Source of the DNA: Spirochaetota bacterium
GTDB taxonomy: Bacteria; Spirochaetota; UBA4802; JAFGDQ01
Direction of reading: 5' to 3'
NCBI GenBank assembly: GCA_043803405.1
Contig: JAZDKB010000003.1
Location: forward strand, 1-64,000
DNA length: 64,000 nucleotides
The position numbers were made by a program, and so were the translations under genes. The notes beneath the pieces are model-generated. The model was given only the letters and a program-made list of their open reading frames with translations, ran no database searches and was not told the origin of the DNA. This document shows, piece after piece, positions 354 to 19,190 of the stretch. How positions within the stretch are numbered: the stretch's first letter is position 1; every line of letters starts with the position of its first letter.

Positions 354-692
354 CTAAAGCGCCTTATCGCCTTCTTCCTCAGTACGTATCCTGATACAAT
401 TGTCAATGCCTGAGATAAAGATTTTACCATCTCCGATGTTGCCTGTTTTGGCAGTTTTTATTAGAGCTTCGGAAATCCTGCCTGCATCAGAGTCTTTGAC
501 TACCAGTTCAATCTTCACTTTTGGAAGCAGGGAAACCCTGTACTCCTTCCCGCGCCATTGCTGAGTAAGGCCTTTCTGCTTGCCGTGTCCTTTTATTTCA
601 GTTATCATTATTCCTGCATATCCTGCATCTTCAAGCGCGGCAAGGACCTCGTCAACTTTTTCAGGACGGATAATTGCTTCAATTTTTTTCAT
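354..692 (-). CDS. glnK: PII nitrogen regulatory protein GlnK
   Basis: 112 aa, MKKIEAIIRP...GxGxQKG...EY...LLPKVKIELVV...GDGKIF; directly downstream of amtB. Confidence 0.93.
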   Translation of the reverse strand: MKKIEAIIRPEKVDEVLAALEDAGYAGIMITEIKGHGKQKGLTQQWRGKEYRVSLLPKVKIELVVKDSDAGRISEALIKTAKTGNIGDGKIFISGIDNCIRIRTEEEGDKAL

Positions 693-706
693 TGTATTTC
701 TCCTCC

Positions 707-2272
707 TTATTTAGACTTTGCGAGCGCTGGTTTTGGAAGCGGAGTTTCCGAATATTTATCCAGCTTTACTCCAACATAACCCGGCACTCCCATTTCCGGC
801 ACATCAAGACCGTCAAGTTCTGCATCAGCGGAAACGCGGTTGCCTACAACAAGATCAATCAGTTTAAACACTACAAACCCGATTATACCTACATACACAA
901 TATTCGAGCAAACGCCTATCAGCTGTGCTAACAGCTGGGAAGGATCGCCGTAAAATAATCCCTTCACAGTACCTGCAACTCCGTTCCAGCTGTCACCGTA
1001 AGTACCATCTGCAAAAAGACCCAGAGCAATACATCCCCACGCACCGTTCACACCGTGTACAGCGATAGCGCCGACTGGGTCATCTATCCTTAGCTTTCTT
1101 TCGATAAAGAAAGCAGCTTCAATAACAAGCACTCCGGAAATAAGCCCTATTATAGCTGCGCCACCTGCGCTAACAAAGCCGGATGGGGCAGTTATTGCCA
1201 CCAGGCCTGCAAGCATTCCGTTGCACATCATGCTCGGATCTGGCTTATGACCCCGAACCCACCACATCCATAACGTAGCAACAGCCGCACCTGTTGCAGA
1301 AGCAAGCATCGTATTTACAGCAACGACGCTGATTCGAAGATCGCCTCCTGCAAGGGTAGAACCGGGATTGAAACCGAACCATCCGAATGCAAGAATAAAA
1401 GTACCGATTATAGCCATCGGTATGTTATGACCCGGTATGGCGTTCGGGCTTCCGTCGCCGTTGTACTTGCCTATTCTCGCGCCTAAGAGTTTCGCGCCTA
1501 CCAGAGCAAGCACGCCGCCCGTCATGTGAACTACGGAAGATCCGGCAAAGTCAACATGGCCATGCCCTATTCCGAAATTTGCGCCAAGCGTAGCAAGCCA
1601 TCCGCCGCCCCATACCCAGTTGCCATATACGGGATATATTATAGTGCCAACAAAAAGGGCATAAATAAAAAACGCGGAATATTTCCATCTTTCCGCCATC
1701 GAACCCGTAGGAATGGTAGCGGTAGTATCCATAAATACCATCTGGAACAGGAACATCGCGAATACTCCGACATCATAAACGCCGCTCAGAAAAAATCCCT
1801 TTGTTCCGAAAAGGCCGAAAGTCTTTCCGAATAGTGTTATGGTGAACTCGCTGTTTAAACCGGCATATCCTCCCAGAGTGCCTAAAGCCCCTATCCCGCC
1901 GAACATTATCGCAAACCCGGCCATATAAAATCCGAGCATGCCAAGCGGATAAACAAGGAAATTCATGGCCATTGTATGAGCAACATTTTTGGCCCTTGTA
2001 AGCCCGGTCTCGACCATGGCAAAACCGGCCTGCATGAACATAACCAGAAAACCAGTGATCAATACCCAAACCATATTGATCGCAACTTTATTATGCCCTA
2101 CAGCATTTGCTACTTCCAGAAGAGTAGGCTCTCCGGGCTTTGCTGCAGTCACATCTGCTACTGTGCCTGTAATAGTACCGCCCGGATCTGCCGATCGTAC
2201 AGCATCAGCAAAAAGCGCTGCAGATGAAGCCAGTAAAATAACAGGCAGCATCAATTTGATAAACCGTTTCAT
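707..2272 (-). CDS. amtB: Ammonium transporter AmtB
   Basis: FMQAGFAMVETG, DFAGSSVVH, GWFGFNPGS and DDPVGAIAVHG motifs; both pore histidines present. Confidence 0.97.
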   Translation of the reverse strand: MKRFIKLMLPVILLASSAALFADAVRSADPGGTITGTVADVTAAKPGEPTLLEVANAVGHNKVAINMVWVLITGFLVMFMQAGFAMVETGLTRAKNVAHTMAMNFLVYPLGMLGFYMAGFAIMFGGIGALGTLGGYAGLNSEFTITLFGKTFGLFGTKGFFLSGVYDVGVFAMFLFQMVFMDTTATIPTGSMAERWKYSAFFIYALFVGTIIYPVYGNWVWGGGWLATLGANFGIGHGHVDFAGSSVVHMTGGVLALVGAKLLGARIGKYNGDGSPNAIPGHNIPMAIIGTFILAFGWFGFNPGSTLAGGDLRISVVAVNTMLASATGAAVATLWMWWVRGHKPDPSMMCNGMLAGLVAITAPSGFVSAGGAAIIGLISGVLVIEAAFFIERKLRIDDPVGAIAVHGVNGAWGCIALGLFADGTYGDSWNGVAGTVKGLFYGDPSQLLAQLIGVCSNIVYVGIIGFVVFKLIDLVVGNRVSADAELDGLDVPEMGVPGYVGVKLDKYSETPLPKPALAKSK

Positions 2273-2310
2273 ATAAACCTCCTTTGACTAATATGCTTAA
2301 CTATTAATTA

Positions 2311-2326
2311 AGCAAATAGCGTACCA
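2311..2326 (-). promoter_or_regulatory. sigma54 (-24/-12) promoter of amtB-glnK
   Basis: Minus strand reads TGGTACGCTATTTGCT (GG-N10-GC), 38 bp upstream of the amtB start. Confidence 0.8.
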
Positions 2327-2495
2327 GCAACGGAGGCAATGTGCGCATTCTGAATTTGTTAACATGGATGTAACTTCAGCAGGTAATTATTAATAATTTT
2401 TTAATAATATTATGGGATAGTAAAATATATATCAGATAAACGATATTAGATTATCACGGGAAAATAAGGAAAAATATTTAAAACCGATTCCGGAG

Positions 2496-2541
2496 GATAC
2501 AATATTGTGCAAAGAAGCCATAGCCGGCACAAATGTGTATC
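2496..2541. promoter_or_regulatory. Putative paired enhancer sites for a sigma54 activator (amtB)
   Basis: GATACAATATTGTGC (2496-2510) and GCACAAATGTGTATC (2527-2541) are a 12/15 inverted match. Their ACA-N4-TGT cores are 30 bp apart, and the first lies 173 bp from the -24 element. Confidence 0.55.
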
Positions 2542-2600
2542 AAAGCTATTTTACCGTATAAGGGCTTCCCTTGAGTTCGGATTAACATATCGGGATAAGT

Positions 2601-3053
2601 CTAAATAAATTTATAAAGACCGCGCATATTGCTCAATGCGAACCCTGCTTTTTTATAAAGATCAAGCGCTGCCGGATTTCGTTCGTCTGCTACAAGCTGA
2701 ACGCGGACAGCTCCCTTTGCTTTTCCCCATAGCAATAAATGTCGCATCAGCATAGTGGCAATGCCTTTGCCTCTGTACCCGGGGACCACAAAGAGATCTT
2801 CCAGCAGAACGGATAATCCTCCGGCAGCTGTTGAAACGACTGTCTGGCCTGTGATCATACCCGCAATAACAGCTCCATCCGCAGCGACAAAAACATCCTT
2901 GTTGTCGTCATTGATTAATAGATAAAGGGCTCTATCCTGTTTCCGGTAGCCGGCGTTAAAGTCCGTTTCTACCGCAAACAGCCCGGAGAGAAGATCGCAC
3001 AGAATATCAATATCGATCAATCTGGCTTTTCTGATTATTATATTATTTTGCAT
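2601..3053 (-). CDS. GNAT family N-acetyltransferase (last gene of nif cluster)
   Basis: LEDLFVVPGYRGKGIA acetyl-CoA motif A and N..A..LYKKAGF motif B. Confidence 0.9.
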   Translation of the reverse strand: MQNNIIIRKARLIDIDILCDLLSGLFAVETDFNAGYRKQDRALYLLINDDNKDVFVAADGAVIAGMITGQTVVSTAAGGLSVLLEDLFVVPGYRGKGIATMLMRHLLLWGKAKGAVRVQLVADERNPAALDLYKKAGFALSNMRGLYKFI

Positions 3054-3077
3054 AAATGTTTTTTTAGAGACACTGTC

Positions 3078-4637
3078 TTAATCATTCCCCACGAACTGAA
3101 ACCGCGTGGTAATCTTATTAACGATATTTAGATAGCTTTCGACAAACATAATAAGAATATCGCTTCCGCAGCATTCATCGCGATATACATTGCCCTCAAA
3201 CCCGGCTTCCATGCAGAACCTCTCTGACCGGACGGATTCGTCGCCATACAGACTCGAATGGAAACCGATTATTTTAATATCAAAATGAAATACCGATTTA
3301 AGGGCCGATATTACCGCATCCCATCCGGAAATACCGTTCCTGCTTATACATTTTACAGCATTGTTCTGGTTTATAAATTCCATAAAGACGGAGAACTCGC
3401 CTTTGTTTTGAGATTGTCCGTTAAGATAATGGATATTCTTTAAAATCCATATTGAATTTTTAATGTATCCCTGTCTGCACAGCAGAAGCAATATATCTGT
3501 CGCGGTTACTATCTTTTTTCTTTTCGCAATATTCTTAAATTCAGTAAATAATTCCCCAATATTTTCATCGGATAATTCCAGGCCGGACAGCTCTTTTATT
3601 TTTTCCTTTAATCCTGTATGTCCTGAATGTCTCGACATCACAAAGTCCATTGAAGGGGCGGATGATCTTTGAGGTTTGAGTATGGAATATGTCCGGCTGT
3701 TGCCGGACATGCCGTGCTGATGTATGCCGGACGAATGAGAATGCGTATGCGCCCCCAGTACGGGTTTGTTCGGATAAGGCCCCATACCCGCAGCGCTAAA
3801 CACTGCCCGCGCAGCATCCGCAAAATATTCCGGCCGTACGCCGGTATAAAGATTCCGGTAATAGTCCTCCCGCGCGCTGATCGCAGCAACAAGTTCTTCG
3901 AGAGCCGCATTGCCCGCGCGTTCGCCAATGCCGAGCAGAGTGCATTCCGCCTGTGCCGCGCCCGCCATAATCCCGGCAAGCGTATTGGCCAGTGCCAGTC
4001 CAAGGTCGTTGTGGCAGTGTACGCTTATAAGCGAAGAGCCGGCAGCAAACGCGGGAACATCCTTCATTAAATTTTTAATCAGCCTGGAAAACTCGGCAGG
4101 CTGCGCGTACCCCACGGTATCCGTAATATTTACTATATCCGCTCCTGCTTCAGCGGCAGCAACGCAGAACTCGGCAAGAAATTTATATTCAGTTCTGGCT
4201 GCGTCCTCTGCGCCCATCTCAACAACATCTGCAAATTTACGGGCAAATGCAACAGATTCAACCGCCATCTTTAAAATATCTTCCCTTGACTTTTTTATTT
4301 TATACTCGCGATGAACGGGCGATGTTGGAATGGTAATGTGAATATATTTTTTTGAGGCTCCGGACAGCGCCATGCCCGCAGCCTCAATATCGCCAGGCAG
4401 CGCACGCGCAAGCGCAGATACGGCTGAATTTTTTATTTCGGACGCGATCTCTCTGACTGCATCGTATTCCGCTTTTGAAGATGCCGGAAACCCGGCTTCT
4501 ATTATATCAACACCCAGTTTTTCCAGCAAAATCGCAATACGTATCTTCTCGTCTGTACTGAAGGCCATCCCCGGAGCCTGGTCCCCGTCCCGGAGAGTGG
4601 TATCGAGAATGATTATTTTACGCTTTGGTATTTCCAT
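3078..4637 (-). CDS. DRE-TIM Claisen-type synthase (LeuA-like; probable homocitrate synthase by context)
   Basis: DTTLRDGDQ, IEAGFP, HCHNDLG and GIGERAGN motifs; occupies the nifV position after nifB and the ferredoxin. Substrate not determinable from sequence. Confidence 0.75.
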   Translation of the reverse strand: MEIPKRKIIILDTTLRDGDQAPGMAFSTDEKIRIAILLEKLGVDIIEAGFPASSKAEYDAVREIASEIKNSAVSALARALPGDIEAAGMALSGASKKYIHITIPTSPVHREYKIKKSREDILKMAVESVAFARKFADVVEMGAEDAARTEYKFLAEFCVAAAEAGADIVNITDTVGYAQPAEFSRLIKNLMKDVPAFAAGSSLISVHCHNDLGLALANTLAGIMAGAAQAECTLLGIGERAGNAALEELVAAISAREDYYRNLYTGVRPEYFADAARAVFSAAGMGPYPNKPVLGAHTHSHSSGIHQHGMSGNSRTYSILKPQRSSAPSMDFVMSRHSGHTGLKEKIKELSGLELSDENIGELFTEFKNIAKRKKIVTATDILLLLCRQGYIKNSIWILKNIHYLNGQSQNKGEFSVFMEFINQNNAVKCISRNGISGWDAVISALKSVFHFDIKIIGFHSSLYGDESVRSERFCMEAGFEGNVYRDECCGSDILIMFVESYLNIVNKITTRFQFVGND

Positions 4638-4657: not shown

Positions 4658-4966
4658 CTATGAGATTAAATACTGTTCCGCAGGCTTCCCTGTTTCAAGG
4701 CTGTCCAGTATTTCGTCAATCGCCGAGTTGCTTTCAACTTTACCGTACCACCAGTTCTCCGGATAAATAATAAGCGCGGGTCCCCTGTCGCAGAGTTTAA
4801 GGCATCCTGTGCCGGAAACAACCACATCGTGCATTCCCCTGTCCGCAAGCTCGTTCTCCAGATACTGCACGAACTGCAGCCCGCCTTTTTTGTTGCACAC
4901 GCCCTGTGAATCCCCGCCAGCCCTGAAGCTGGCGCATACAAAGATGTGATGTTCTGGTTTTTTCAT
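4658..4966 (-). CDS. Thioredoxin-like [2Fe-2S] ferredoxin
   Basis: MKKPEHHIFVC...C...TGCLKLCDRGPALIIYPENWWYG; start re-called to the ATG at 4966 with a GGAG RBS. Confidence 0.9.
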   Translation of the reverse strand: MKKPEHHIFVCASFRAGGDSQGVCNKKGGLQFVQYLENELADRGMHDVVVSGTGCLKLCDRGPALIIYPENWWYGKVESNSAIDEILDSLETGKPAEQYLIS

Positions 4967-5037
4967 TTGTTTTCTCCGTAAAAATTGATTGTTTTGAGCA
5001 ATTTTTGCCTTTGTGCCTGCCCATGGCAGGGCTGTCT

Positions 5038-6294
5038 CTATCCGCATCCTGTGCCTGTTCCTCCGCATGTTTTGCCAATTCCGCAGCCTGCTTTTCTTAA
5101 CATTATTCCGGGTATTTCACCGCCCTTAAAAAGCTGCTGTGCAGCTTCGTTTATTAACCCCTCCATCTCAATTACGCGTATGCCGGAATGCTCAAGTATT
5201 TCCTTCGGTCTTTTGCCTATTCCGGACACTAAAACAGCGCCGCAGTCGCTCAGCAGTATTGCCATTTCGTTCCAGCGTGCGTCACCTCCTCCGGGTATCG
5301 GCGTGAACCTCCTGTCAATAAGCTGCGGCTTCCCGTCGGAAAATCCGAATATCCACAGGGAGGGAGCCTCGCCAAGATGCTGGTTGACCAGAAGCCCTTC
5401 CATGCTCGCAGCTGCAATAAACGGACGTTCTTCTGTAATATAATTTTTCGAATGGCTTTCCAGCAGGTCAGTTATTTCAGCAGAATTTTCATGCCCCAGC
5501 ATTCCTGCGGCATCAGCCCTGCACCGCATGCAGTGACTCATCTGCCCGATATATCTGCCGGCTTCGCTGCGGATCGCGTCCATTTCTTCATTCGGCATGG
5601 GCTCCATGTTCTCAAAGGCAGTGCCTGCAACGTGATATAACGGAACGCAGTTTTGAATATCTGCGCCCAATGCAGCAATTTTTTTTGCTATGCCAGCAAC
5701 TTCTTTATCATTGATGCCCGGGATCACGACAGTGTTTATCTTTACTGTTATCTTGTTTTGCTTAAGCAGGATAATCCCTTCGGTCTGTCTTTCCAGAATT
5801 ATGCCGGCAGCGTCTTCGCCCCTGTACATTTTTCTGCCGTATCTTGCCCATTCGTATATTCTGCCGCCTGTCTTTGCATTAAGTGCATTGACCGTTACGG
5901 TCACATGGCTTACTTTAAGCTTCGCAAGCTCCTCCGCGTATTCCGCAACTTCAAGCCCGTTCGTGGCAACGCACAGAATAATATCCGGATACTTGTCCCT
6001 CACAAGAGAAAGCGTATTAATTGTTTCGGACGGGTTCGCAAAAGGATCTCCCGATCCCGCGATACCCACTACCGATATGTTGCCAAGCTTTTCAATAACT
6101 GAATCAAGATATTTTACAGCCTGTACTGGCGTGAGAACAGCGCTCGTTACTCCCGGCCTTGATTCGTTGATGCAGTCTGTCTTCCTGTTGCAGTAACCGC
6201 ACTGCATGTTGCATAGCGGCGCCACAGGCAGGTGTATCCTCCCGAATTTGTGCCGCGCGTCAGCGCTGAAACACGGATGACTGTTTGCATTCAT
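5038..6294 (-). CDS. nifB: FeMo-cofactor biosynthesis radical SAM protein NifB with C-terminal NifX-like domain
   Basis: HPC, CNMQCGYC, ESRP, TVTVN and CMRCRADAAG motifs plus VNQHLGEA NifX-like tail. Start re-called to the ATG at 6294 (AAGGAGG at 6301-6307). Confidence 0.95.
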   Translation of the reverse strand: MNANSHPCFSADARHKFGRIHLPVAPLCNMQCGYCNRKTDCINESRPGVTSAVLTPVQAVKYLDSVIEKLGNISVVGIAGSGDPFANPSETINTLSLVRDKYPDIILCVATNGLEVAEYAEELAKLKVSHVTVTVNALNAKTGGRIYEWARYGRKMYRGEDAAGIILERQTEGIILLKQNKITVKINTVVIPGINDKEVAGIAKKIAALGADIQNCVPLYHVAGTAFENMEPMPNEEMDAIRSEAGRYIGQMSHCMRCRADAAGMLGHENSAEITDLLESHSKNYITEERPFIAAASMEGLLVNQHLGEAPSLWIFGFSDGKPQLIDRRFTPIPGGGDARWNEMAILLSDCGAVLVSGIGKRPKEILEHSGIRVIEMEGLINEAAQQLFKGGEIPGIMLRKAGCGIGKTCGGTGTGCG

Positions 6295-6338
6295 ATTGTA
6301 CCTCCTTATTCCCTCCTCATCAAAGCGACATTCACTCT

Positions 6339-6574
6339 CAGATTGCTTCCCCTGCCAAGGGCAGGGCTGTCTCATGCTAAATAGCATTTGTATTAGACTA
6401 CCATACTTGCATTCCATCACAATTACCCTTTCGTCCCCCTAACCCCCAAAGGGGGCACATTCTTGTAAAAAAATAAATTATTCGCCATAATAATTTCCAG
6501 GCCGGTGCCCCCTCCGGGGGTTAGGGGGCCGGGAGCATACCCGATTTACAACTAAAATAATCTACGTGAGGCCG
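6339..6574. repeat. Palindromic MITE/REP-like element, copy A (nifN-nifB spacer)
   Basis: Internal inverted repeat CCCCCTAACCCCCAAAGGGGGCAC (6435-6458) / GTGCCCCCTCCGGGGGTTAGGGGG (6505-6528). 6339-6530 matches 7998-8189. The right arm matches the reverse complement of about 27341-27390. Confidence 0.85.
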
Positions 6575-6600
6575 CGTTTCGCTGCCGAGGGGGTCTTCTG

Positions 6601-7956
6601 CTACTGATAACTATACCCCACAGCCGAAATGTTCTGCTTATGTTCAAGCAGCGTATTTACAATGGCATCGAAAATCCTCAGTGTTCCCCTGTACCCGATA
6701 TGAAGCATGCGCTGTCCCCCTATGCGGTCGTGTACTGGAAAACCAACGCGCACAAGCGGAACGCCGAGCTCACGCGATACATAATACGCCTTGCCTGGCC
6801 CTATAACAATATCGGGTTCAAGATCGCGCGACAGATCAAGAACGCGGGAAAAATCGGTATCCGCAAGCATGGCAGGTTTTTCTTTGCATGAACCGGACAC
6901 CAGCTGCATAGAACTGTTTAAAGTACCGCTGCCGGATGCAATGATCACGGGGACAATGCCGGTCTCCGCGCATAGACCGGCTATACCCGCAGCCATGTCC
7001 CCATCGCCAATGATTACCGCACGCTTCCCAAATACATATTTGTGCCCGTCGATATAAGAATCAGCCAGCCTGCCGCGCTCTTTAGCGTATTTCTCTGGAA
7101 TACCGCACCCGGTAATTTTTTTTATGAGCCCGAAGAATCTGTCGGTCTCGTCTATACCGATGGGAAGCCCCATTGTTTCCCCGCTTACTCCGCAACTTTT
7201 TTCCAGGTAATCCGCCGCATTCTCAAATCCAATGCCTCCAAGCTGTAAAGTGGCACTCGCCCCGCCCATGCTGCGTATGCTGCTTACAGGCGTGCCTCCT
7301 GCGGAAATCTTTAAATACTCTTCCCATGTTCCTCCGTCCATTGTCTCGGAATAATCCGGGAATACCACAGCATCGATTTTCATATCGTAAAATATTTCCT
7401 TAAGATGCCTGATGTCTTCTGAAGAAACAAATCCCGGTATAATATTAATGCTTTTCATTTGCCCGCTATTTTGCGCAAGGGCGCGTATTGAGCACACTAT
7501 TGCTTTAAAATATCCGTCAATATGGCTTCCGCTGTAACTCGGCGTAGATGCGTAAATGATGGGCGGCGCATCATCGATCCCGCGCTTTGCATATTCCCTT
7601 ATCAGCATATCCACGTCATCGCCAATAGTCTCGGACAAACAGGTGCTTGCTATTCCAATCGCAGCCGGGTTGTACTGATGTATAACGTTATCAAGAGCAG
7701 TATGCAGATTCACCCGCCCGCCGAAAACAGCGCTAGCCTCGGTAAAGTTAGAAGACGCAATATCCATCGGTTCCCGGAAATGGCTGATTATGTATCGCCG
7801 TATATATGTGGAGCATCCCTGCGATCCGTGTATAAGAGGGATGCATCCCTCAATCCCCCTGAACGCAAGGCTCGCTCCAAGAGGCGCGCACATCCTGCAC
7901 GCGTTTCTCGTAGCAGTGAAAGTCCGCTTGTCTTCATTTGTGTAAGTAAGATTCAT
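6601..7956 (-). CDS. nifN: FeMo-cofactor scaffold subunit NifN
   Basis: Nitrogenase component-1 beta-type fold (NACRMCAPLG, HGSQGCSTYIRRY, STCLSETIGDD, VGFPVHDRIG); between nifE and nifB. Start re-called to the ATG at 7956. Confidence 0.9.
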   Translation of the reverse strand: MNLTYTNEDKRTFTATRNACRMCAPLGASLAFRGIEGCIPLIHGSQGCSTYIRRYIISHFREPMDIASSNFTEASAVFGGRVNLHTALDNVIHQYNPAAIGIASTCLSETIGDDVDMLIREYAKRGIDDAPPIIYASTPSYSGSHIDGYFKAIVCSIRALAQNSGQMKSINIIPGFVSSEDIRHLKEIFYDMKIDAVVFPDYSETMDGGTWEEYLKISAGGTPVSSIRSMGGASATLQLGGIGFENAADYLEKSCGVSGETMGLPIGIDETDRFFGLIKKITGCGIPEKYAKERGRLADSYIDGHKYVFGKRAVIIGDGDMAAGIAGLCAETGIVPVIIASGSGTLNSSMQLVSGSCKEKPAMLADTDFSRVLDLSRDLEPDIVIGPGKAYYVSRELGVPLVRVGFPVHDRIGGQRMLHIGYRGTLRIFDAIVNTLLEHKQNISAVGYSYQ

Positions 7957-7997
7957 TCCAGTTCCTCTTAATCCTAATGTCATTCCTTATGGGTGCA

Positions 7998-8192
7998 CAG
8001 ATTGCTCCCCCTGCTAAGGGCAGGGCTGTCTCATGCTAAATAGTATTTGTATTAGGCTACCAAACTTACATTCCATCGCAATTACCCCTTTGGCCCCCTA
8101 ACCCCCAAAGGGGGCACATTCTTGTAAAAAAATAGATTATTCGCCATAATAATTTCCAAGCCGGTGCCCCCTTTGGGGGTTAGGGGGCCAAA
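7998..8192. repeat. Palindromic MITE/REP-like element, copy B (nifE-nifN spacer)
   Basis: Perfect 29-bp inverted repeat 8089-8117 / 8164-8192; direct repeat of copy A with about 14 mismatches in 192 bp (hand count). Confidence 0.88.
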
Positions 8193-8229
8193 TTAGCACT
8201 CCGCATCCTTTCCTATCCCATCTTTCTTC

Positions 8230-9648
8230 TCACTTACCCAAAATGTGGGTAGAAGTCAGACTGATAAGGGGGAGTGGACGCGCTTCGCGGCCGAGGGGGT
8301 TCATCCGCCTCTGCCATGCAGGCGAAAACCGCCACACAGGGCTCATAATGGACGCATATACCTCCTCGCAAAAATTCAGCATTCCCTGAAAACCTGCGAG
8401 CGCGATCTTGCGCTCGTGATTGTGATCGCAGAAAGCCACGCCCAGCTTATACGCGATCGGCCTCTCTTTGACTCCGCCTATCAGCAGATTCACTTTCTTC
8501 TCAGCCATAAAGTGCGACAGCTCAAGAGGGTTCGTGTCGTCCGCGATGATCGTTCCCTCGTCACAGATTTCTTTCAGATAATCGTAATCCTCACTGCTCC
8601 CTGTCTGCGAACCGACTATCACAGTATGTATACCGAGATGCCTGAGTGCCTTTACAAGCGAGAATGCCTTAAATGATCCGCCCACATAGATCGCGGCTCG
8701 TGAACCCTCAAGGTATTTTCTGAATCCGGTTATTTTCGGAAGAATAGCAGATATCTCTCTTCCCACAAGCTTTGCCGTTCTATCCAGGATATCCGTATCG
8801 TTAAAATATTGAGCCACATCGTACAATGCTGCTGACATATCCTCTATACCAAAATACGAAACACGCTTATATGGGATACCGTATTTTTCTTTCATCATTT
8901 CGGCCAGGCGCGTCATTGAACCCGAACACTGCACAACATTAAGAGAAGCTTTATGCGCCCTGCCTATTTCGTCGACCCTGCCGTCTCCTGTAATGCACGA
9001 TACAACATCCACGCCCATTTCCCTGTAATATTCCTTTATTATCCATGTCTCGCCGGCCAGGTTAAAATCGCCGAGTATATTTATACTCGCGCCATGCACC
9101 GGCCGGCTGTCCTCGCTCTTACCTGTTAAAGCGAAAATTGCTTCACATGCAGCATGGTATCCGTCTTTTTTTGTTCCTTTAAACCCTTCCGAATGCACTG
9201 GAAGAACCGGGATGCCGCTTTCTTCAGATACCTTCCGGCACACTGCATTCACATCATCGCCGATGAGCCCCACTATGCATGTTGAGTATACGAACGCGGC
9301 TTTGGGTTTATATGCGGCAATCAGCTCTGTTAACGATGCGTAAAGCTTCTTCTCGCCGCCGAAAATAACTTCGCGCTCGCGCAGGTCTGTACTGAAACTC
9401 ATCCTGTGAAGTTCTGGTCCGGAGGATAATGATCCGCGTATGTCCCACGTATAAGCAGCACAACCTATCGGGCCGTGAACGAGATGCAGAGCATCTGCTA
9501 TCGGGTAAAGCACAACGCGTGATCCGCAGAATACGCATGCGCGCTGGCTCACAGAACCAGCAAGGCTCGCCCTGCCGCAGGCAATGCTGTGAGCATCTTC
9601 GCCGTTTCTGAATACCTGATCCTTTCTCGCATCAAGAATGTCGATCAT
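8230..9648 (-). CDS. nifE: FeMo-cofactor scaffold subunit NifE
   Basis: SQRACVFCGSR, HGPIGCAAYTWDIRGS, VVQCSGS and DHNHER motifs; follows nifK. Confidence 0.95.
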   Translation of the reverse strand: MIDILDARKDQVFRNGEDAHSIACGRASLAGSVSQRACVFCGSRVVLYPIADALHLVHGPIGCAAYTWDIRGSLSSGPELHRMSFSTDLREREVIFGGEKKLYASLTELIAAYKPKAAFVYSTCIVGLIGDDVNAVCRKVSEESGIPVLPVHSEGFKGTKKDGYHAACEAIFALTGKSEDSRPVHGASINILGDFNLAGETWIIKEYYREMGVDVVSCITGDGRVDEIGRAHKASLNVVQCSGSMTRLAEMMKEKYGIPYKRVSYFGIEDMSAALYDVAQYFNDTDILDRTAKLVGREISAILPKITGFRKYLEGSRAAIYVGGSFKAFSLVKALRHLGIHTVIVGSQTGSSEDYDYLKEICDEGTIIADDTNPLELSHFMAEKKVNLLIGGVKERPIAYKLGVAFCDHNHERKIALAGFQGMLNFCEEVYASIMSPVWRFSPAWQRRMNPLGREARPLPLISLTSTHILGK

Positions 9649-9832: not shown

Positions 9833-11203
9833 TTACATGACCAGCTCAAACCCCTCCTCAGGAGCATCCCTGTCCTGTCTGTCAAGTACTGCATTCAGTA
9901 TCTTCTCCACCAGTCTCATTGCTCCGCGATATCCTGTAACAGGGAAATACTGATGCCCCACTCTGTCGTATATAGGGAACCCTACCCGCACCAGAGGTAT
10001 GTCCTCATCACGGGCAATATATTTTGCATAAGTATTTCCCAGTATGATATCAGGCTTATCGTTTTTAACAAGCTGATGAAAATAGAACATGTCTGCGCGT
10101 TCGCCGCTTTTAACAACCGCGCTTTTTGCTATATCATGAATGCGGCTCTCAAATTTTGCTCCTGCAGAAGTGCCGGTCACAACATACAAAACTTTCATTC
10201 CAATATCGGAAAGAAATTCGGCAATGCCTGTAAGCTGATCCGGATCCCCGCAAAGAGCGGCTTTCCTGTTATAAAAGTACTGGTGCATGTCGCTTATCAT
10301 GTCCAGGAGCTGGCCGCGCTCGAACATGATACTGTCCGGTACAGGAACGCCTGCGGCTTTCCGCAGAGTATCAACAAATCTGTCTGTTGCCCTGAGGCCA
10401 ATAGGAAGCTCGAGAGTCTCGAACGGCACGCCGCATTTCGTATCCAGAAGCTTTGCCGCAGGCAGCGAGGCTGTGCGGCCGAGCGCGACGGTGAAGAAGC
10501 TGGAGCCTGCGCTTTTCACAGCATCCGCATTTGCACCGGCGTTCGGGAACATGCGGAAACGTCCATCATGCGGACCATTCATAATGCCGGAAGTATCAGG
10601 GAACATTATTATATTAATACCCATCTTCTCCGCGATCCTTCTCATCTCGGACATGTCGGACGGTTCAATAAAACCGGGAATTATATTAATATGATTTTCC
10701 CTTGGCCCTTTTTCGGACATATAATGGACAAAGGCCTGAGTCATGCTTGCGAAGCCGGTAATATGCGAGCCCTTGAAACTCGGAGTGTTCGCATGGATTA
10801 CGCGTTTGCCTTTCGGGATTTTGCCTTCTGCGGCTGCCGTCTTGATTATCTGTCCTATATCATCCCCAATAACCTCGGAGAGACACGTAGTGTGAACCGC
10901 TATAATATCCGGGTTATAGATCGTAAAAATATTGTTTATTGCTTCAAGCAGATTAGCCTGCCCACCGAATACGGACGCTCCTTCAGTAAACGAGCTTGTC
11001 CCTGCCATGACCGGTTCCTTGTAATGCCTGGTCAGCGCGCTTCTGTGATAAGCGCAGCATCCCTGCGAGCCGTGGCTGTGGGGCATGCAGCGGTTAATCC
11101 CAAGCGCTGCGTACATCGCCCCAATAGGCTGGCATGTCTTTGCCGGGTTTATGGTCAAAGCCGATCTTTCATCTGTTTTTTCCGGTGTGTGTCGTAATAG
11201 CAT
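9833..11203 (-). CDS. nifK: Nitrogenase MoFe protein beta chain
   Basis: INPAKTCQPIGA, HSHGSQGCCAYHR and HTTCLSEVIGDD motifs; short N-terminus of the Group II type. Confidence 0.97.
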   Translation of the reverse strand: MLLRHTPEKTDERSALTINPAKTCQPIGAMYAALGINRCMPHSHGSQGCCAYHRSALTRHYKEPVMAGTSSFTEGASVFGGQANLLEAINNIFTIYNPDIIAVHTTCLSEVIGDDIGQIIKTAAAEGKIPKGKRVIHANTPSFKGSHITGFASMTQAFVHYMSEKGPRENHINIIPGFIEPSDMSEMRRIAEKMGINIIMFPDTSGIMNGPHDGRFRMFPNAGANADAVKSAGSSFFTVALGRTASLPAAKLLDTKCGVPFETLELPIGLRATDRFVDTLRKAAGVPVPDSIMFERGQLLDMISDMHQYFYNRKAALCGDPDQLTGIAEFLSDIGMKVLYVVTGTSAGAKFESRIHDIAKSAVVKSGERADMFYFHQLVKNDKPDIILGNTYAKYIARDEDIPLVRVGFPIYDRVGHQYFPVTGYRGAMRLVEKILNAVLDRQDRDAPEEGFELVM

Positions 11204-11238: not shown

Positions 11239-12885
11239 TTATTTATCCCATCCATAGCTTCCGGAAAGCTGCGGGTTCACTTCCCACGGCGCCTTAGTGA
11301 AGCTGAATATCTTCGAATTCACAAGACGGTCTATCTCCCTGTAAAAGTTCACCGCGCCCCTGAATCCCGCATAAGGCCCGCTGTAATCGTAGCTGTGAAG
11401 CTGCTTCATCGGGATGCCCGCTTTCTGAACCACGTACTTCTCCTTAATGCCGGCGCAGAAAATATCAGGCTTGTATTTCTCAATCAGTATTTCAGTCTCA
11501 TGATGATTGAGATCGTCGATCACAAGGCTGTTGTCCCGCATTTCAGCCATCATTCCCTCATAGCCGCCGAAAGATAGTCCCTCTTTGGCAAGATTTTCCA
11601 TTTCGTCCTTTTCCTTTCTGAGACTGAACCTGGACGGGTCCGGTGTCACTGTAAGCTCTTCAATGTTGCGCGTGTCGGCATCCAGAATAATATCCGGGAT
11701 AATTCTGCGTCCTTCGTAATCGTCCCTGTGCGCGAATTCATAACCGGCGGAAACTGTACGCATTCCTATTTCTGTAAAAAGCTCCTGGTAATGATGAGCG
11801 CGCGACCCGCCTACGAAAAGCATTGCAAGCTTGCCTTCGCAGCGCGATCTGACTTCTTCGCGCACTTTCTCAACTTCCGGCATTTCAGCTGCTATTATCT
11901 CTTCCGTCTTTTTAATGATTTCACTGTCTCCGAAATAGGCAGCTATCTTCCGAAGCGACTTGGCTGTTGCGTTTGCTCCTATAAAATTTATCTTGAACCA
12001 GGGAATCCCGTATTTCTTATCCATCATCTCAGCCAAATAATTGATCGAGCGGTGGCACATAACTACATTGAGATCTGCTGTATGCGCGCTCGCGAATTCA
12101 TCATAGTCCGAGTTTCCGCTGAACGTAGAGTGCAGGGTTATCCCGCACGCGCTTACTATCCTCTCAATCTCGAACGCATCCCCGCCTATGTTGTATTCGC
12201 CCAGTATGTTTATCCTGAATTTGCCTTCCTTCGGCTTATCAAGCTGCCCAACTACATCTGTAAATACCTTGTTGTTCGCGACATGATGACCCGCCGACTG
12301 GCTGACTCCCTTATATCCTTCACAGCTGAATCCGAAAATATTTATGTCCGGATATTTCTCCTCCATCTCGCGCGAAACGGCATGTACATCATCCCCGATC
12401 AACCCGACAGGGCATGTGGAAAATATCCCTATCGCTTTAGGATGAAATATCGCGATCGCTTCCTCTATTGCTTTCTTAAGTTTTTTCTCTCCGCCGAAGA
12501 TGATCTGGTCCTCCTGCATGTCGGTTGAAAGCGCATAAGTCATGTAGTTCGCGTGAGCATCGCTTTCAGGACGCGTCTGGTTCCTGCGCGTAAGCCAGCT
12601 GTAAAACCCGCAGCCTATCGGCCCGTGCGTAATCTGAAGAATGTCGCGCGTGGGGCCAAGCACAACGCCTTTGCACCCGGCATAAGCGCAGCCGCGCATC
12701 GTGAGTATGCCTGGAATTGTTCGCGTGTTCGCGAGGATCTCGGGAACCCTGCCCTCGTTATCTGCTTTATTCACTACTATTTGCTTAGCGCGTTTCCTTG
12801 CCACTTTGACAGGGTACTTTGCAAGCATTTCATTCTTTATATCCAGCGGATTTATCTCGGTATTTGCTTTTTTAGTATTATTCAT
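11239..12885 (-). CDS. nifD: Nitrogenase MoFe protein alpha chain (Group II type)
   Basis: P-cluster cysteines (RGCAYAG, GPIGCG, TCPVG), FeMoco ligands in VMCHRS and QLHSYD, and the roughly 50-aa Group II insertion after FAHRDDYEG. Confidence 0.98.
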   Translation of the reverse strand: MNNTKKANTEINPLDIKNEMLAKYPVKVARKRAKQIVVNKADNEGRVPEILANTRTIPGILTMRGCAYAGCKGVVLGPTRDILQITHGPIGCGFYSWLTRRNQTRPESDAHANYMTYALSTDMQEDQIIFGGEKKLKKAIEEAIAIFHPKAIGIFSTCPVGLIGDDVHAVSREMEEKYPDINIFGFSCEGYKGVSQSAGHHVANNKVFTDVVGQLDKPKEGKFRINILGEYNIGGDAFEIERIVSACGITLHSTFSGNSDYDEFASAHTADLNVVMCHRSINYLAEMMDKKYGIPWFKINFIGANATAKSLRKIAAYFGDSEIIKKTEEIIAAEMPEVEKVREEVRSRCEGKLAMLFVGGSRAHHYQELFTEIGMRTVSAGYEFAHRDDYEGRRIIPDIILDADTRNIEELTVTPDPSRFSLRKEKDEMENLAKEGLSFGGYEGMMAEMRDNSLVIDDLNHHETEILIEKYKPDIFCAGIKEKYVVQKAGIPMKQLHSYDYSGPYAGFRGAVNFYREIDRLVNSKIFSFTKAPWEVNPQLSGSYGWDK

Positions 12886-12967: not shown

Positions 12968-13345
12968 TCACTGGTCCAGCGTATCATGGCCTGTTTCACC
13001 GGTGCGTATGCGTATTGATCCGCTTACAGGCATTACGAATATCTTTCCATCTCCGGATTTTCCTGTCCGGTTTACGGAAATAATCGCGCCTGCAACTTTC
13101 TCAACCAGTTTGTCCGGAACAACTATTGATATCATTCTTTTTGGTATAAGGCGCTGGGTATTCCCAAGCCGCGCCACAGCTTCCTCATATATTTGCTCAG
13201 AACCTTTTAGTATGATAAAATCTACAAGGCCTTTACCTCTTCCGAGACATTCTCTCGCGTGAAAAGATGTTATCCCGGCATCCAGCAGAGCCTGCTTTGT
13301 CTGATTCATCATATTCATGCGGATAACAGCCATTACTTCTTTCAT
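12968..13345 (-). CDS. nifI2: PII-family nitrogenase regulator NifI2
   Basis: MKEVMAVIRMNMMNQTKQAL...GRGKG...LIPKRMI...GDGKIFV; lies between nifH and nifD and overlaps the nifI1 stop. Confidence 0.92.
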   Translation of the reverse strand: MKEVMAVIRMNMMNQTKQALLDAGITSFHARECLGRGKGLVDFIILKGSEQIYEEAVARLGNTQRLIPKRMISIVVPDKLVEKVAGAIISVNRTGKSGDGKIFVMPVSGSIRIRTGETGHDTLDQ

Positions 13346-13695
13346 ACAGCGACCTCCGACTGCCCGCCTGTACCTTCCTTTATGCCCGAGCTGACCGTGT
13401 AGACCTCGTCAATCGGTGAAATGAATATTTTACCGTCACCAAAAGCCCCTTTTGAGCCTGACCTTGCAGTCGACATTATTGCCTTAATAACGAGATCCTT
13501 ATCCTTATCCGGAACAGCTATCATTAAAAGTTCTTTCGGGATCTCATCATAAGTAATGTCTCCTATTTTTATACCGCGCTGTTTGCCCCGTCCCGAGACA
13601 TTCATCTTTGTCACTGCCGGGAACCCCTCAGCCATCAGCTTTTCGAGAACCGTATCGACTTTCTCCGGACGGATTATTGCTTTAATCATTATCAT
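13342..13695 (-). CDS. nifI1: PII-family nitrogenase regulator NifI1
   Basis: MIMIKAIIRPEK...GRGKQRGIKIGDITYDEIPK...GAFGDGKIF; start re-called to the ATG at 13695 (AGGAG RBS). Confidence 0.92.
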   Translation of the reverse strand: MIMIKAIIRPEKVDTVLEKLMAEGFPAVTKMNVSGRGKQRGIKIGDITYDEIPKELLMIAVPDKDKDLVIKAIMSTARSGSKGAFGDGKIFISPIDEVYTVSSGIKEGTGGQSEVAV

Positions 13696-13714
13696 ATTTA
13701 TTCTCCTATATATT

Positions 13715-14560
<846 letters not shown>

Positions 14561-14662
14561 TTATAGGTATTTATATAATTGATAAGATCTGTTGTTTTCT
14601 CAAGCGGCTGCATTTAAAAAAGTTTATAAATAGCCGCGAGTTATATTTACACATAAATATTA

Positions 14663-14678
14663 TGCAAGAAGCGTGCCA
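14663..14678 (-). promoter_or_regulatory. sigma54 (-24/-12) promoter of the nif cluster
   Basis: Minus strand reads TGGCACGCTTCTTGCA, a full match to TGGCAC-N5-TTGCA, 114 bp upstream of nifH. Confidence 0.9.
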
Positions 14679-14848
14679 GAATAATGTTTAAGGTTATTTA
14701 ATGGAATGTAATGTTTAGAGAAGAGAACTATTTAATGTACATGTAACAAAGTGGGGCAAAATATTGCTCAAAATGGAATATTTATAATGATAAATAATAA
14801 AGATTATCTGTTTAATTCAAAACCGTTAATTATAAATGATATGTTTAT

Positions 14849-14891
14849 TACAATTATGTATTATTACAAGGGGGACGGATACAAAAATGAG
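14849..14891. promoter_or_regulatory. Putative paired enhancer sites for a sigma54 activator (nifH)
   Basis: TACAATTATGTA (14849-14860) and GATACAAAAATGAG (14878-14891). Cores are 31 bp apart and the first is 172 bp from the -24 element, the same geometry as at amtB. Confidence 0.5.
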
Positions 14892-14899
14892 ATAAAAGA

Positions 14900-16330
14900 C
14901 TAAAATATAATATTGTCTATCTCTTCCAGCTTGCTGTTCTCAAGTGTGCCGCATTTTACATTGTATTCGAGGAATATCTTAAAAATAACAGGATCGATTT
15001 TAAAGCTCTTTGTTATAAATTCTTTTTTCATTATTGTGAGCGCCTCTACAACAGGATAATTTTTTTTGCCTGTAAGCGCGTCAAAAATATCTATGATCTC
15101 CAGCACCTTGCACGGGAAATAAGCGAGTGAAATGCCGTGAATAAAGTCATCCTTATTATAACTGATAAAATATTTAAAATCTTCTTCCGTAAATTTTTTC
15201 CCGGTAAATTTTGAAAGCAATGGCTTCGTAAAACCGTAACTTCCCTTTCCACCGTAATATTCGTGATGAAAAACGGCCATTGCAAACACCTCAAAGGGAT
15301 ACTGTCTGGCTTTTATAAGCATATTATATCCGTGCAGGGCGTGTTTCTTTACCGTGTCTTCGTCATAAGGGTCTGAACCGTCATGATAACCAATATAGCG
15401 CAGCTTGCCAATATCAAATAAAAGCGCACCAAGGATATAATTCTGGATTTCCTTTTCCTTGTCTATGCGCCTTATTCCGTCTTTAAAAATCCTTTCAATT
15501 GATACCTCTTCAGTCGGAAGACGTTTTTTGTAATGCCGGTGATATTTATCTTTGAATGCTCCCCTTATATTTTTTGTAAAAAGGCCTTCGCCGATATACT
15601 CATTATAAAAACTACAGAAGGAAACAAACCTGAGGAATACTTTGTTTATATGATCGATTGTTTTTGAGCCTGTTGATATCTTTTCAATAATTTTAAGGTC
15701 GCCATAGGGATATTTTTTTTGATCGAATAAATCTATCAGGATTTTTACGATCCATGCCGACTTCACAAGGACTCCGTTAATATTATCTTTTACATTTTCG
15801 GTTGCAATATTCTGTTCGAGATTGGCGTTATTTGCGTAAAACGTATTGCTAAGGACAGACACCATATATACTATTGAGTCAATATTGAGCTGTTTCTTTT
15901 CACTGTCCTCGCTTAATTTTGATATACATTCATCAAGTATTTCTTCCCGTTCAACTACCGACATTTTGCCGAACAAGGAGACCTGTTCATCAACCTTTCC
16001 GAATTTCTCAACCTGTTTCATTGCCTGGGAGTCGTCAGGAGCCTCCGGTGCAGGTTCCTGATTTTTTAATTCTGCTTTATGCTCTTTGATTCTTTCTTTC
16101 CAGTTCTTATCAATAAAAAATTTAAATTTGTCTGCATCTTTCTCTTTCAGGTATTCGTCAAGTTTCTTAACGGGAAGCACAACCAGCTGATTTATATTGT
16201 TCTTGCGCCATACGGCAACGTTAACCGTGGTTATGTCATTTAAATTTTTTGTTATTTCTTCAACAGATATTTCCTGCATGTCCTTTTCGGAAACACTGGC
16301 TTCCTGTTTTTCTTTGTCCTTATTTTCCAT
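14900..16330 (-). CDS. HD-GYP-like domain protein with degenerate active site
   Basis: C-terminal GALLFDIGK...H...GY...FHHEYYGGKGSYG...IDIFDALT follows the HD-GYP layout, but HD is FD and the GYP motif is altered. Confidence 0.65.
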   Translation of the reverse strand: MENKDKEKQEASVSEKDMQEISVEEITKNLNDITTVNVAVWRKNNINQLVVLPVKKLDEYLKEKDADKFKFFIDKNWKERIKEHKAELKNQEPAPEAPDDSQAMKQVEKFGKVDEQVSLFGKMSVVEREEILDECISKLSEDSEKKQLNIDSIVYMVSVLSNTFYANNANLEQNIATENVKDNINGVLVKSAWIVKILIDLFDQKKYPYGDLKIIEKISTGSKTIDHINKVFLRFVSFCSFYNEYIGEGLFTKNIRGAFKDKYHRHYKKRLPTEEVSIERIFKDGIRRIDKEKEIQNYILGALLFDIGKLRYIGYHDGSDPYDEDTVKKHALHGYNMLIKARQYPFEVFAMAVFHHEYYGGKGSYGFTKPLLSKFTGKKFTEEDFKYFISYNKDDFIHGISLAYFPCKVLEIIDIFDALTGKKNYPVVEALTIMKKEFITKSFKIDPVIFKIFLEYNVKCGTLENSKLEEIDNIIF

Positions 16331-16469: not shown

Positions 16470-17582
16470 TTACACATATTTTTTAATGATATCTATTATT
16501 CTTTCCTGATCCTTTTCTTCAATATAAGGATGCATCGGCAGGCTGAATATTTTCCGGGCAACCAGTTCGCTGGCCGGGAAGTCTCCAAGTCTATGTCCAA
16601 GATACGCAAACGCATCCTGAACATGAAGAGGCTTCGGATAATATACTGCTGTCGGTATCCCGTTATCTTTAAGCCTGGAGATTATTTTATCTCTTTCAGG
16701 ATGCATTATGGAATATTGCGCCCACACGGAAATATTATGCGGTTTAACAAACGGAACTGTAACAGAATCCTTAAGTCCGTCCGAATATTTACTGGCGACT
16801 TTTTGTCTAAGCTGAATTTCTTCTTCAAATATTTCGAACTTTGCAAGCAGAACCGCTGCCTGAATAGTGTCGAGCCTGCCATTAATGCCTATCCGTACAT
16901 TATTGTATTTATCCGATCCCTGCCCGTGCACCCGAATAGAAACAAGCTTATCGTATAAGTCTTTACTGTCGGTAAACGTCATTCCGCCGTCGCCGTAGCA
17001 TCCGAACGGCTTTGCAGGGAAAAAGCTGGTTGCCGATGCGTGAGCAAGCGAACTCGCCTTCCTCCCTTTATACATGGCCCCGAAACTCTGCGCCGCGTCT
17101 TCCAGCACAAAAAGCCCGTGTTTTTTGGCAATAGCGTTTATCTCGTCGTAATCCGCGCACTGGCCGAATAAATCGACTGGAATTATAGCTCGCGGGATCA
17201 GTTTGCCTTCGGATTTAACGCTCTTAATAGCTTCTTCAAGCATAGCTGTGTCTATGTTAAAGGTATCTTTTTCAATATCAACAAAGACCGGAGTCGCTCC
17301 CAGAAGCGCAATTACTTCTGCGGTAGCAATAAAAGTAAACGGCGTAGTAAATACGGCGTCGCCCGGCTTAAGGCCGTATGCCATAAGCGGCATCAGCAAT
17401 GCGTCAGTTCCGCTGGAACAGCCCACAGCGTATTTTACTCCAGCATAACCTGCAAGCTTTTCTTCTATTGCCACGACTTCCGGCCCATTAATAAAACTGC
17501 AGCTTTGCATTATTCTGGAAATATTGTTATTGATTGTATCTTTAATTCTTTTCTGCTGTGCGGGAAGATCAATAAATTGCAT
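16470..17582 (-). CDS. DegT/DnrJ/EryC1/StrS family PLP sugar aminotransferase
   Basis: SSGTDAL, EDAAQSFGA, SFFPAKPFGCYGDGG and NGRLDTIQAA motifs. Confidence 0.95.
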   Translation of the reverse strand: MQFIDLPAQQKRIKDTINNNISRIMQSCSFINGPEVVAIEEKLAGYAGVKYAVGCSSGTDALLMPLMAYGLKPGDAVFTTPFTFIATAEVIALLGATPVFVDIEKDTFNIDTAMLEEAIKSVKSEGKLIPRAIIPVDLFGQCADYDEINAIAKKHGLFVLEDAAQSFGAMYKGRKASSLAHASATSFFPAKPFGCYGDGGMTFTDSKDLYDKLVSIRVHGQGSDKYNNVRIGINGRLDTIQAAVLLAKFEIFEEEIQLRQKVASKYSDGLKDSVTVPFVKPHNISVWAQYSIMHPERDKIISRLKDNGIPTAVYYPKPLHVQDAFAYLGHRLGDFPASELVARKIFSLPMHPYIEEKDQERIIDIIKKYV

Positions 17583-18089: not shown

Positions 18090-19190
18090 ATGAAAGCTTC
18101 AGCAAGTTTAAAAAAGAAATATGACCTTCCGAATGAGCGCGACCTAAGCATTCTCATTATCGACGACGAAGATCTGGTGCTAAAAACCATTGAAGACATA
18201 TTGATTGTCTCAAATCCGAACTATTTTATTAAAACAGCCCGTACTGTTGAAGAAGCTCTGGAGTTAATTCAGAAAACCTACTGGGATACAATACTTTTGG
18301 ACCTCTCTCTGCCGGTAACAAAAGGTGAGCGCCCAAACTGCGATAACGGATTGTACCTGCTGGATAAATTAAGCAAAGAACTTAAAATCACGCCGCCTAT
18401 AATTGCCATGACCGGTTATGGGGACGATAAATTATCCGATATTGTTCTGGATAAAGGCGCCTATTACTTTCTGTATAAACCTGTAAAGGCAAAATCCCTT
18501 TCCGCCATAGTGAAAAACGCGACCAGGCTTCAGCAGGCCGGATTTGACGGCCTTACAGGGCTTTTAAGCAGAAAAACATTTGAAGAAAGATTAAAAATCG
18601 AATTTGAAAGAGTCAGAAGAAATAATGAGAAGAAAGGCAATCAGACTAAACAAAATACCTATCCGCTTAATTCATCATCTTATCTGACTTTGCTGTTTTT
18701 TGACGCGGATAATTTTAAAAACATCAATGACTCCTACAACCATTTAGTAGGGGATCAGGTGCTTAAAAAAATAAGCAGTCTGTTTATTGACGAAAACCTG
18801 TATAAATGTATCAATAGCGATCAGGAGCAGTCCCAGGGATATGTCAACATTATAAGGCCTTATGATATTGCTTCGAGATTCGGGGGTGACGAGTTTTCAA
18901 TATTTCTGCCTGAAACAGACCATCAGCAGGCTTTAATTATCGCCAAAAGAATACGCGAAATGCTGCTCGAGTTCAACATAAGGGAAATAATCGGGGATCA
19001 GGAAATCAAATCGGAAGCCGCAGGCATTTCACTTTCCATCGGTATTGCTACTTATCCGCAGCCTAATTATGTAGAAAACCATAAAGAATTAATCGATCTG
19101 GCCGACAGTGCTATGTATGCCTCCAAAGAGAAAAGAAAAGGAGAGATATTCGGATATAATCAAAAAGGCAAGATCGCATTGCTTGATTAA
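18090..19190 (+). CDS. Response regulator-diguanylate cyclase (REC-GGDEF)
   Basis: REC domain (IIDDE, LLDLSLP, MTGY, KPV), intact RFGGDEF, and RPYD I-site. Confidence 0.93.
   Translation: MKASASLKKKYDLPNERDLSILIIDDEDLVLKTIEDILIVSNPNYFIKTARTVEEALELIQKTYWDTILLDLSLPVTKGERPNCDNGLYLLDKLSKELKITPPIIAMTGYGDDKLSDIVLDKGAYYFLYKPVKAKSLSAIVKNATRLQQAGFDGLTGLLSRKTFEERLKIEFERVRRNNEKKGNQTKQNTYPLNSSSYLTLLFFDADNFKNINDSYNHLVGDQVLKKISSLFIDENLYKCINSDQEQSQGYVNIIRPYDIASRFGGDEFSIFLPETDHQQALIIAKRIREMLLEFNIREIIGDQEIKSEAAGISLSIGIATYPQPNYVENHKELIDLADSAMYASKEKRKGEIFGYNQKGKIALLD

Follow-up and report, generated by a model that had tools for sequence, protein, structure and literature searches.

Which protein switches on nitrogenase and ammonium uptake at this locus, where the nitrogenase operon and the amtB-glnK operon are each preceded by a sigma54 promoter and where the window (the whole 64,000-nucleotide stretch of DNA analysed here, with a G+C content of 42%) contains no recognisable activator gene? 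Here, we propose that four ACA-N4-TG(T/A) sites, arranged as one pair upstream of each promoter, are the UAS of a single NifA-family sigma54 enhancer-binding protein whose gene lies beyond the window, a reading to which we assign a probability of roughly 0.6 from comparison of sequences. The two halves of this proposal differ in strength: it is very probable that all four are functional enhancer-binding-protein sites, and a member of the NifA family is the favoured candidate for the protein that occupies them.

The features on which the argument draws are collected in Table 1. The nitrogenase operon, led by nifH, has the order nifH-nifI1-nifI2-nifD-nifK-nifE-nifN-nifB-fdx-nifV-GNAT and reaches down to position 2601; the label fdx was given because an ORF 59-70% identical holds the same place in the nif clusters of relatives. 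These relatives are 80 loci taken with 10-kb flanks from a NifE search (one genome per species, the best 75-77% identical). The nif proteins of the window find their best matches there at 75-86% identity and with mixed taxonomy, and for five flanking non-nif proteins a comparison with the 80 loci gave no match. In accordance with the initial annotation, which had reported no enhancer-binding protein gene, the Sigma54_activat domain was found in none of the 50 large window ORFs scanned (123 ORFs of at least 80 aa are listed). The ORF directly upstream of nifH, which has no relative among the 80 nif loci, shows HD-GYP-like residues by eye and sits where many relatives carry nifA. Since the slot ahead of nifH is filled by this HD-like ORF, the gene for the activator must be located elsewhere. 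Outside the nif region the window encodes many signalling proteins (18090-19190, 41322-43427, 59437-62398) of the REC-GGDEF, PAS-GGDEF-EAL, REC-HATPase_c and hybrid REC-PAS-HisKA-HATPase_c histidine kinase types, from all of which a sigma54 domain is absent.

Table 1. Features of the window discussed in the text. Scores in bits refer to the 18-bp matrix derived from relatives; site centres are relative to the estimated transcription start, placed 26 nt downstream of the T of TGG.
Feature	Coordinates	Strand	Sequence	Remarks
glnK	354-692	-		P-II 1.1e-29 (Pfam search)
amtB	707-2272	-		Ammonium_transp 8.9e-108
amtB-glnK operon	354..2272	-		second target
amtB-glnK sigma54 -24/-12 promoter	2326..2311	-	TGGTACgctatTTGCT	estimated start near 2300
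amtB proximal site	2496..2511		GATACAatatTGTGCA; core ACAATATTGT 2499-2508	centre ~-203; 7.7 bits
amtB distal site	2526..2541		GGCACAaatgTGTATC; core ACAAATGTGT 2529-2538	centre ~-233; 5.5 bits
GNAT acetyltransferase	2601-3053	-		
nifV, homocitrate-synthase-like	3078-4637	-		
small ORF labelled fdx	4658-5068	-		no Pfam match
nifB	5038-6420	-		
palindromic element, copy	6421-6600			nifN-nifB intergenic
nifN	6601-7983	-		
palindromic element, copy	7984-8229			nifE-nifN intergenic
nifE	8230-9648	-		
nifK	9833-11203	-		
nifD	11239-12885	-		
nifI2	12968-13345	-		
nifI1	13342-13758	-		
nifH	13715-14548	-		leads operon
nifH operon sigma54 -24/-12 promoter	14678..14663	-	TGGCACgcttcTTGCA	estimated start near 14652
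nifH proximal site	14847..14862		core ACAATTATGT 14850-14859	centre ~-202; 15.9 bits
nifH distal site	14878..14893		GATACAaaaaTGAGAT; core ACAAAAATGA 14881-14890	centre ~-233; 6.4 bits
candidate weak third nifH site	14903..14920		ACA-N4-TTA	centre ~-259; 7.0 bits; uncertain
HD-like ORF upstream of nifH	14900-16330	-		476 aa; weak HD_5 match, E 0.0045
palindromic element, third arm pair	27385-27570			between ankyrin-repeat ORF and hemB

Both promoters and all four sites can be read directly at the positions first annotated. The promoters lie upstream of their genes and point at them, their GG and GC doublets stand 10 bp apart, and they depart from the sigma54 consensus TGGCAC-N5-TTGCW by no mismatch at nifH and one at amtB. 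With up to two mismatches this consensus occurs 20 times in the window (26.7 expected), and the nifH and amtB promoters are the only matches there that are intergenic and gene-directed. The pattern TGGYAY-N5-TTGCW has three window matches against 0.30 expected. The third of these, TGGCATcaagaTTGCA (58532-58547, minus strand), lies antisense within flgE with no ACA-N4-TGT pair upstream and is probably a chance match. Sigma70-like promoters and terminators between 1 and 16500 occur in numbers at shuffle level.

The sites of a pair are 31 bp apart at nifH and 30 bp apart at amtB, with 172 and 173 bp, respectively, separating the pair from the -24 element, and GATACA is present at three of the four sites (2496-2501, the reverse complement of 2536-2541, and 14878-14883), all exactly as annotated. 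Three sites have the perfect ACA-N4-TGT core, and the fourth, the nifH distal site, is imperfect, having a TGA half. When the two upstream regions are compared with the promoters as anchor, the distal sites of nifH and amtB align in register and no other conserved upstream element is seen. A pattern search also agrees that TGT-N10-ACA is absent between either promoter and its sites: the nearest copies are at 14945-14960 (about -300, in the upstream ORF) and 3057-3072, and the window as a whole has 10 against 7.8 expected. The candidate third nifH site falls within the upstream ORF, at its 3' end. The spacers of nifH and amtB are 78% and 72% A+T. We considered an IHF site in the spacers as an aid to looping and rejected it, as the consensus WATCAA-N4-TTR at up to one mismatch matches 93 times in the window, below the 121 expected, with no match in the nifH spacer and one, carrying 1 mismatch, in that of amtB.

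If these sites belong to a real regulatory system, the same motif should recur ahead of nifH elsewhere. The 80 loci are labelled Spirochaetota, Syntrophorhabdales, Syntrophaceae/Smithella, Treponemataceae, Chlorobium, Desulfobacterales, Holophagaceae, Verrucomicrobiota, Victivallaceae, Planctomycetota, Clostridia and others, and nifH has its 5' end located in 56 of them. For motif discovery, which the initial annotation had suggested for orthologous upstream regions, the set comprised 29 nifH upstream regions (8,015 nt, about -326 to -46; window excluded) whose sigma54 promoter is strict or near-strict and is preceded by no fewer than 150 nt, and all 832 patterns of the form XYZ-N(0-12)-rc(XYZ) were enumerated. 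ACA-N4-TGT ranks first, occurring 29 times in 18 of the 29 regions against 1.31 expected from first-order Markov shuffles, several of the regions being closely related to each other (e.g. L019 and L032). The nested patterns TAC-N6-GTA (21 versus 0.98), CTA-N8-TAG (11 versus 0.82) and CCT-N10-AGG (9 versus 1.01) come next, and TGT-N10-ACA is not enriched in these regions (3 versus 1.34). ACA-N4-TGT reaches 2.22 copies per kb within 400 nt ahead of nifH versus 0.247 over the full 1.31 Mb of loci, at least one copy lies upstream of nifH in 30 of the 56 loci, and of 82 sites with an all-A/T spacer 29 fall in the 22 kb upstream of nifH. Refinement on the relatives' nifH upstream regions gave an 18-bp matrix with the consensus TCCTACATTAATGTAGGA. 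AT-flanked sites resembling those of the window are present in L003, L018, L056 and L064. In the closest nif-cluster relatives (L004, L008, L011, L023, L049 and L063), the nifH -12 element is TTGA or TTGT, not TTGC, and the half-sites are often CCTACC/GGTAGG instead of CCTACA/TGTAGG.

Could the four window sites be no more than a frequent AT-rich 10-mer that happens to fall twice upstream of each promoter? ACA-N4-TG(T/A) has 90 strand-matches in the 64-kb window against 38 expected in shuffles, forming 64 distinct sites or about one per kb, and the pattern was picked post hoc. In addition, the relatives' matrix gives low scores (5.5-7.7 bits) to three of the four sites, and the amtB proximal site ranks only 26th among the 111 window matches of at least 5 bits, 25 places scoring higher. 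The 10-mer core alone is weak evidence, and the arrangement is the stronger. Only two pairs spaced 28-33 bp occur in 64 kb, where 0.38 are expected, and they are the nifH and amtB pairs; in a promoter-anchored simulation of random placement, both amtB matrix matches fall within 1 bp of a nifH match with P about 0.0014. The nifH proximal site (14846-14863) is the window's top match to the matrix, which was built on relatives only, and the motif independently comes out top with the window excluded and recurs at amtB in L003. Chance is thus a very improbable explanation. A duplication of the promoter region was likewise rejected as the source of the common geometry: the spacers are identical at just 51 of 161 positions, compared with 18 of 25 in the promoters and 12 of 24 in the surroundings of each site. 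Further matrix matches in the window (16893-16910, 55466-55483, 47518-47535 and others) were set aside as chance, being within ORFs with no sigma54 promoter near.

The motif is also tied to sigma54 promoters in the relatives. A scan of the 80 loci on both strands with TGGYAY-N5-TTGN gave 84 promoter-like matches, 48 of which are preceded, at a distance of 60-330 bp, by a matrix site scoring 9 bits or more. For nifH this count is partly circular, the matrix having been trained on nifH upstream regions; the amtB, PII, nifV, nifE-type, ModA-like and nifA-like targets stand outside the training set. Of 39 spacings between adjacent sites, 20 measure 28-32 bp, with a mode of 30 bp (n=11), and the proximal sites are centred between -98 and -268. 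The window centres of -203 and -233 are at the far end of this range, and a locus labelled Spirochaetota (L001) has its sites at -223 and -203.

Co-control of nitrogen fixation and ammonium uptake, as originally claimed, receives support from the syntenic locus L003, in which both amtB genes have a sigma54 promoter and two sites 30 bp apart (about -139/-109 and -141/-111); one of the encoded AmtB proteins is 65% identical to that of the window. The combination of motif and sigma54 promoter is also found upstream of a PII gene in L063 and of nifE-type genes in L046, L077 and L065. In L043, nifV and a divergent solute-binding (ModA-like) gene have one site pair in common; this pair, 29 bp apart between the divergent sigma54 promoters of the homocitrate-synthase and ModA-like genes (990-3332), looks like a shared bidirectional enhancer. 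Hence the motif is above expectation, positionally constrained, and conserved at both nifH and amtB in relatives, and the pairing geometry together with this enrichment points to a shared enhancer architecture unlike TGT-N10-ACA, as had been suggested from the window by itself.

What kind of protein would read these sites? An ORF with the Walker A and GAFTGA motifs of an enhancer-binding protein is present in 27 of the 80 loci, mostly directly upstream of nifH and usually 510-580 aa long. The top NCBIfam family was TIGR01817 (NifA) for all 15 activators tested of the 27 found: five exceed its curated cut-off of 528.85 (L049, L043, L013, L076 and L077), eight score 493-526 and so fall at most 36 bits under it, one truncated ORF scores 374, and one unrelated protein 177. 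For most of them the match covers positions ~3-438 of the 534 in the profile, which is to say GAF and AAA+, and ends before the DNA-binding end. Seven activators scanned against Pfam have the architecture GAF + Sigma54_activat + AAA_lid_14 + HTH_8. Six nifA-like genes (L026, L028, L067, L072, L076 and L079) have a sigma54 promoter and sites of their own, at about -150/-120. The initial annotation had called the architecture "non-NifA", a label that is not supported by this comparison, in which the activators next to nifH in relatives match the NifA family best and six such genes carry the sites upstream themselves. A 2025 survey reports that nifA adjoins nifI1I2 in some Bacteroidetes, Spirochaetes, Verrucomicrobia and Deltaproteobacteria (PMC11773926).

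The description of the regulon as "unrecognised" is not supported either, as the motif had already been predicted for Desulfovibrionales, in the nif regulon assigned to DVUA0143 (Kazakov et al. 2015, BMC Genomics, PMC4641369). That in silico study proposed DVUA0143, a one-component enhancer-binding protein whose N-terminal domain is AnfA/VnfA-like, as regulator of the nifH operon, and its supplement gives 22 predicted sites from five Desulfovibrionales (e.g. CTACAAAAATGTAG and CGACATTTATGTCG). Its motif, as presented there, resembles the window in the ACA-N4-TGT core, the A/T spacer, the multiple copies upstream of nifH, and the tie to sigma54. It differs in its flanks (C(G/T)ACA versus GATACA/AATACA in the window) and in its site spacings, which are often 18-23 bp versus 30-31 bp, and the printed DNA-binding domain of DVUA0143 is unlike all three HTH types that we find next to nifH in relatives.

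These three C-terminal HTH types go together with differences in the half-site flank, which reads tCCTACA, gCGACA or tCTACA according to the type of the adjacent activator. A C at half-site position -2, the flank base best conserved in relatives, is found in 38/44, 7/10 and 20/26 half-sites for the three types in relatives and in none of the eight window half-sites. This co-variation fits the adjacent protein being the binder, although it is confounded by phylogeny. That one core accompanies three recognition helices and the differing domain of DVUA0143 weakens a one-protein-one-motif reading, and it makes conceivable a common third protein, such as a nitrogen-responsive repressor, a co-activator or an architectural protein, that would hold the sites while the true activator binds elsewhere or acts from solution. 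We regard such a binder as improbable, for the position of the sites between -98 and -268, their pairing at three helical turns and their association with sigma54 promoters are the classical signature of enhancer-binding proteins, and the anchored comparison of the window promoters showed no further conserved upstream element.

A different enhancer-binding protein is the more serious competitor. amtB is a typical target of NtrC, each amtB site has one half (TGCACA, in the proximal site, or GGCACA) like NtrC or GnfM half-sites, and the window has no nifA where relatives carry one, all of which would suit an NtrC/GnfM-type response regulator acting as the two-component master of nif and amtB-glnK. 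At the enteric glnAp2 promoter, NtrC dimers occupy two strong sites separated by about three helical turns, oligomerise, and loop to the sigma54 promoter; these sites are of the TGCACC-N5-GGTGCA type and nearer the promoter than those of the window, and the activator is a response regulator. In Geobacter sulfurreducens, footprinting and lacZ fusions showed that GnfM directly controls nifH, nifEN, nifV, glnB-glnA and glnK-amtB through paired sites upstream of RpoN promoters (Ueki and Lovley 2010; PMC2995071), so that co-activation of nitrogenase and ammonium uptake by one non-classical activator is a known design. GnfM differs from what we propose in being a two-component response regulator, and its NtrC-like sites are 17-mers of the form TGC-N11-GCA with an odd-length centre, located at about -128 to -89. 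The two ends of this 17-mer occur together in none of the four window sites, the N4 core spacing of these sites is that of the relatives' motif, and in relatives the motif precedes nifA-like, not response-regulator, genes. The same-face pairs of 30/31 bp at both window promoters are an architectural resemblance to NtrC and GnfM only. Geobacter adds antitermination by GnfK/GnfR, and no such element was identified in the window (Rfam, 0 matches). On balance we consider an NtrC/GnfM-type regulator at these sites unlikely.

The NifA-family protein that we prefer would itself depart from the textbook. The UAS of classical proteobacterial NifA is TGT-N10-ACA. What the window shares with this system is a sigma54 promoter with an upstream palindromic site made of TGT/ACA triplets, and the likeness extends to the relatives, in which the activators match TIGR01817 over GAF and AAA+ and nifA is apparently autoregulated in some. 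In contrast, the triplets of the window stand in the opposite order and 4 instead of 10 bp apart, and the regulon includes amtB. Judged by sequence, the window adds another example of a NifA-family enhancer motif that had been predicted before, and not a new kind of regulon. What may be noteworthy is how widely the motif extends across phylum-level groups, the 30-bp pairing, and the presence of amtB, PII and nifA among the putative targets; our search of the literature, conducted outside subscription journals, found neither an experimental test of the ACA-N4-TGT nif motif nor a description of it beyond Desulfovibrionales.

In light of the sites being predicted NifA-family UAS, how might they work? 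The activator would have a GAF sensor, an AAA+ domain with GAFTGA and a C-terminal Fis-type HTH, and would belong to a clade linked to the nifH-nifI1-nifI2-nifDK clusters of anaerobes. Under nitrogen limitation, which we take as the probable signal, its dimers would occupy both palindromes of the (W)ACA-N4-TGT(W) type, which lie three helical turns apart and hence on one face of the DNA. The bound protein would assemble into an active oligomer, loop over the AT-rich spacer of about 170 bp to the sigma54 holoenzyme, and use ATP to open the promoter, so that the nitrogenase operon and amtB-glnK would come on together.

A broader form of this reading, for which we see the odds as even, is that a whole NifA clade of anaerobes reads (W/C)TACA-N4-TGTA, not TGT-N10-ACA, and governs a conserved regulon. 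The clade would include lineages labelled Spirochaetota, Desulfobacterota/Syntrophia, Chlorobium, Holophagaceae, Verrucomicrobiota and Victivallaceae, and the regulon would comprise the nitrogenase operon, nifA, nifV, nifEN, a molybdate-type binding protein, PII and amtB. The GATACA flanks of the window would then represent a lineage-specific shift in specificity, in a genome whose activator has moved away from nifH.

The control of nitrogenase transcription in anaerobes of the nifI1/nifI2 type has barely been studied, the textbook account being that of proteobacterial NifA and Geobacter. A short, position-bound motif that marked nif, amtB, PII and cofactor genes in many uncultured lineages would allow the regulons of metagenome-assembled diazotrophs to be read from sequence, and EMSA or DAP-seq would have a concrete target in it. 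For the window, it may account for the joint switching of nitrogen fixation and ammonium uptake without an activator encoded in the cluster.

Two further features of the nif region deserve mention. The nifH leader (14548-14652, about 105 nt) has a possible GCGGCU/AGCCGC hairpin (MFE -18.2 kcal/mol, z -2.4), a fold that 5 of 200 shuffles equal in stability. The leader has no Rfam match, nor does any other part of the window at the gathering threshold. The nifH leader of Geobacter has terminator-like signals subject to antitermination (PMC2995071).

The second feature is a palindromic repeat some 150 bp long whose arms are inverted copies of GGGGGTTAGGGGG; there are 6 matches in the window versus 0.01 expected (Table 1). 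The two copies within the nif cluster are ~90% or more identical over about 150 aligned columns, as counted from the alignment, and have a mean column identity of 83% over all 232 columns. The loop of the element carries ACAAGAATGT, which accounts for two ACA-N4-TGT matches of the window; those at 6457 and 8116 were therefore rejected as promoter sites. The listed start of the nifB ORF (GTG at 6420) has its first codons within the repeat, where 23 codons align and about 20 residues are readable in both copies. Since in the second copy an almost identical short peptide runs into a stop codon, the true start of nifB is probably downstream of this GTG, with the region 6330-6420 in question.
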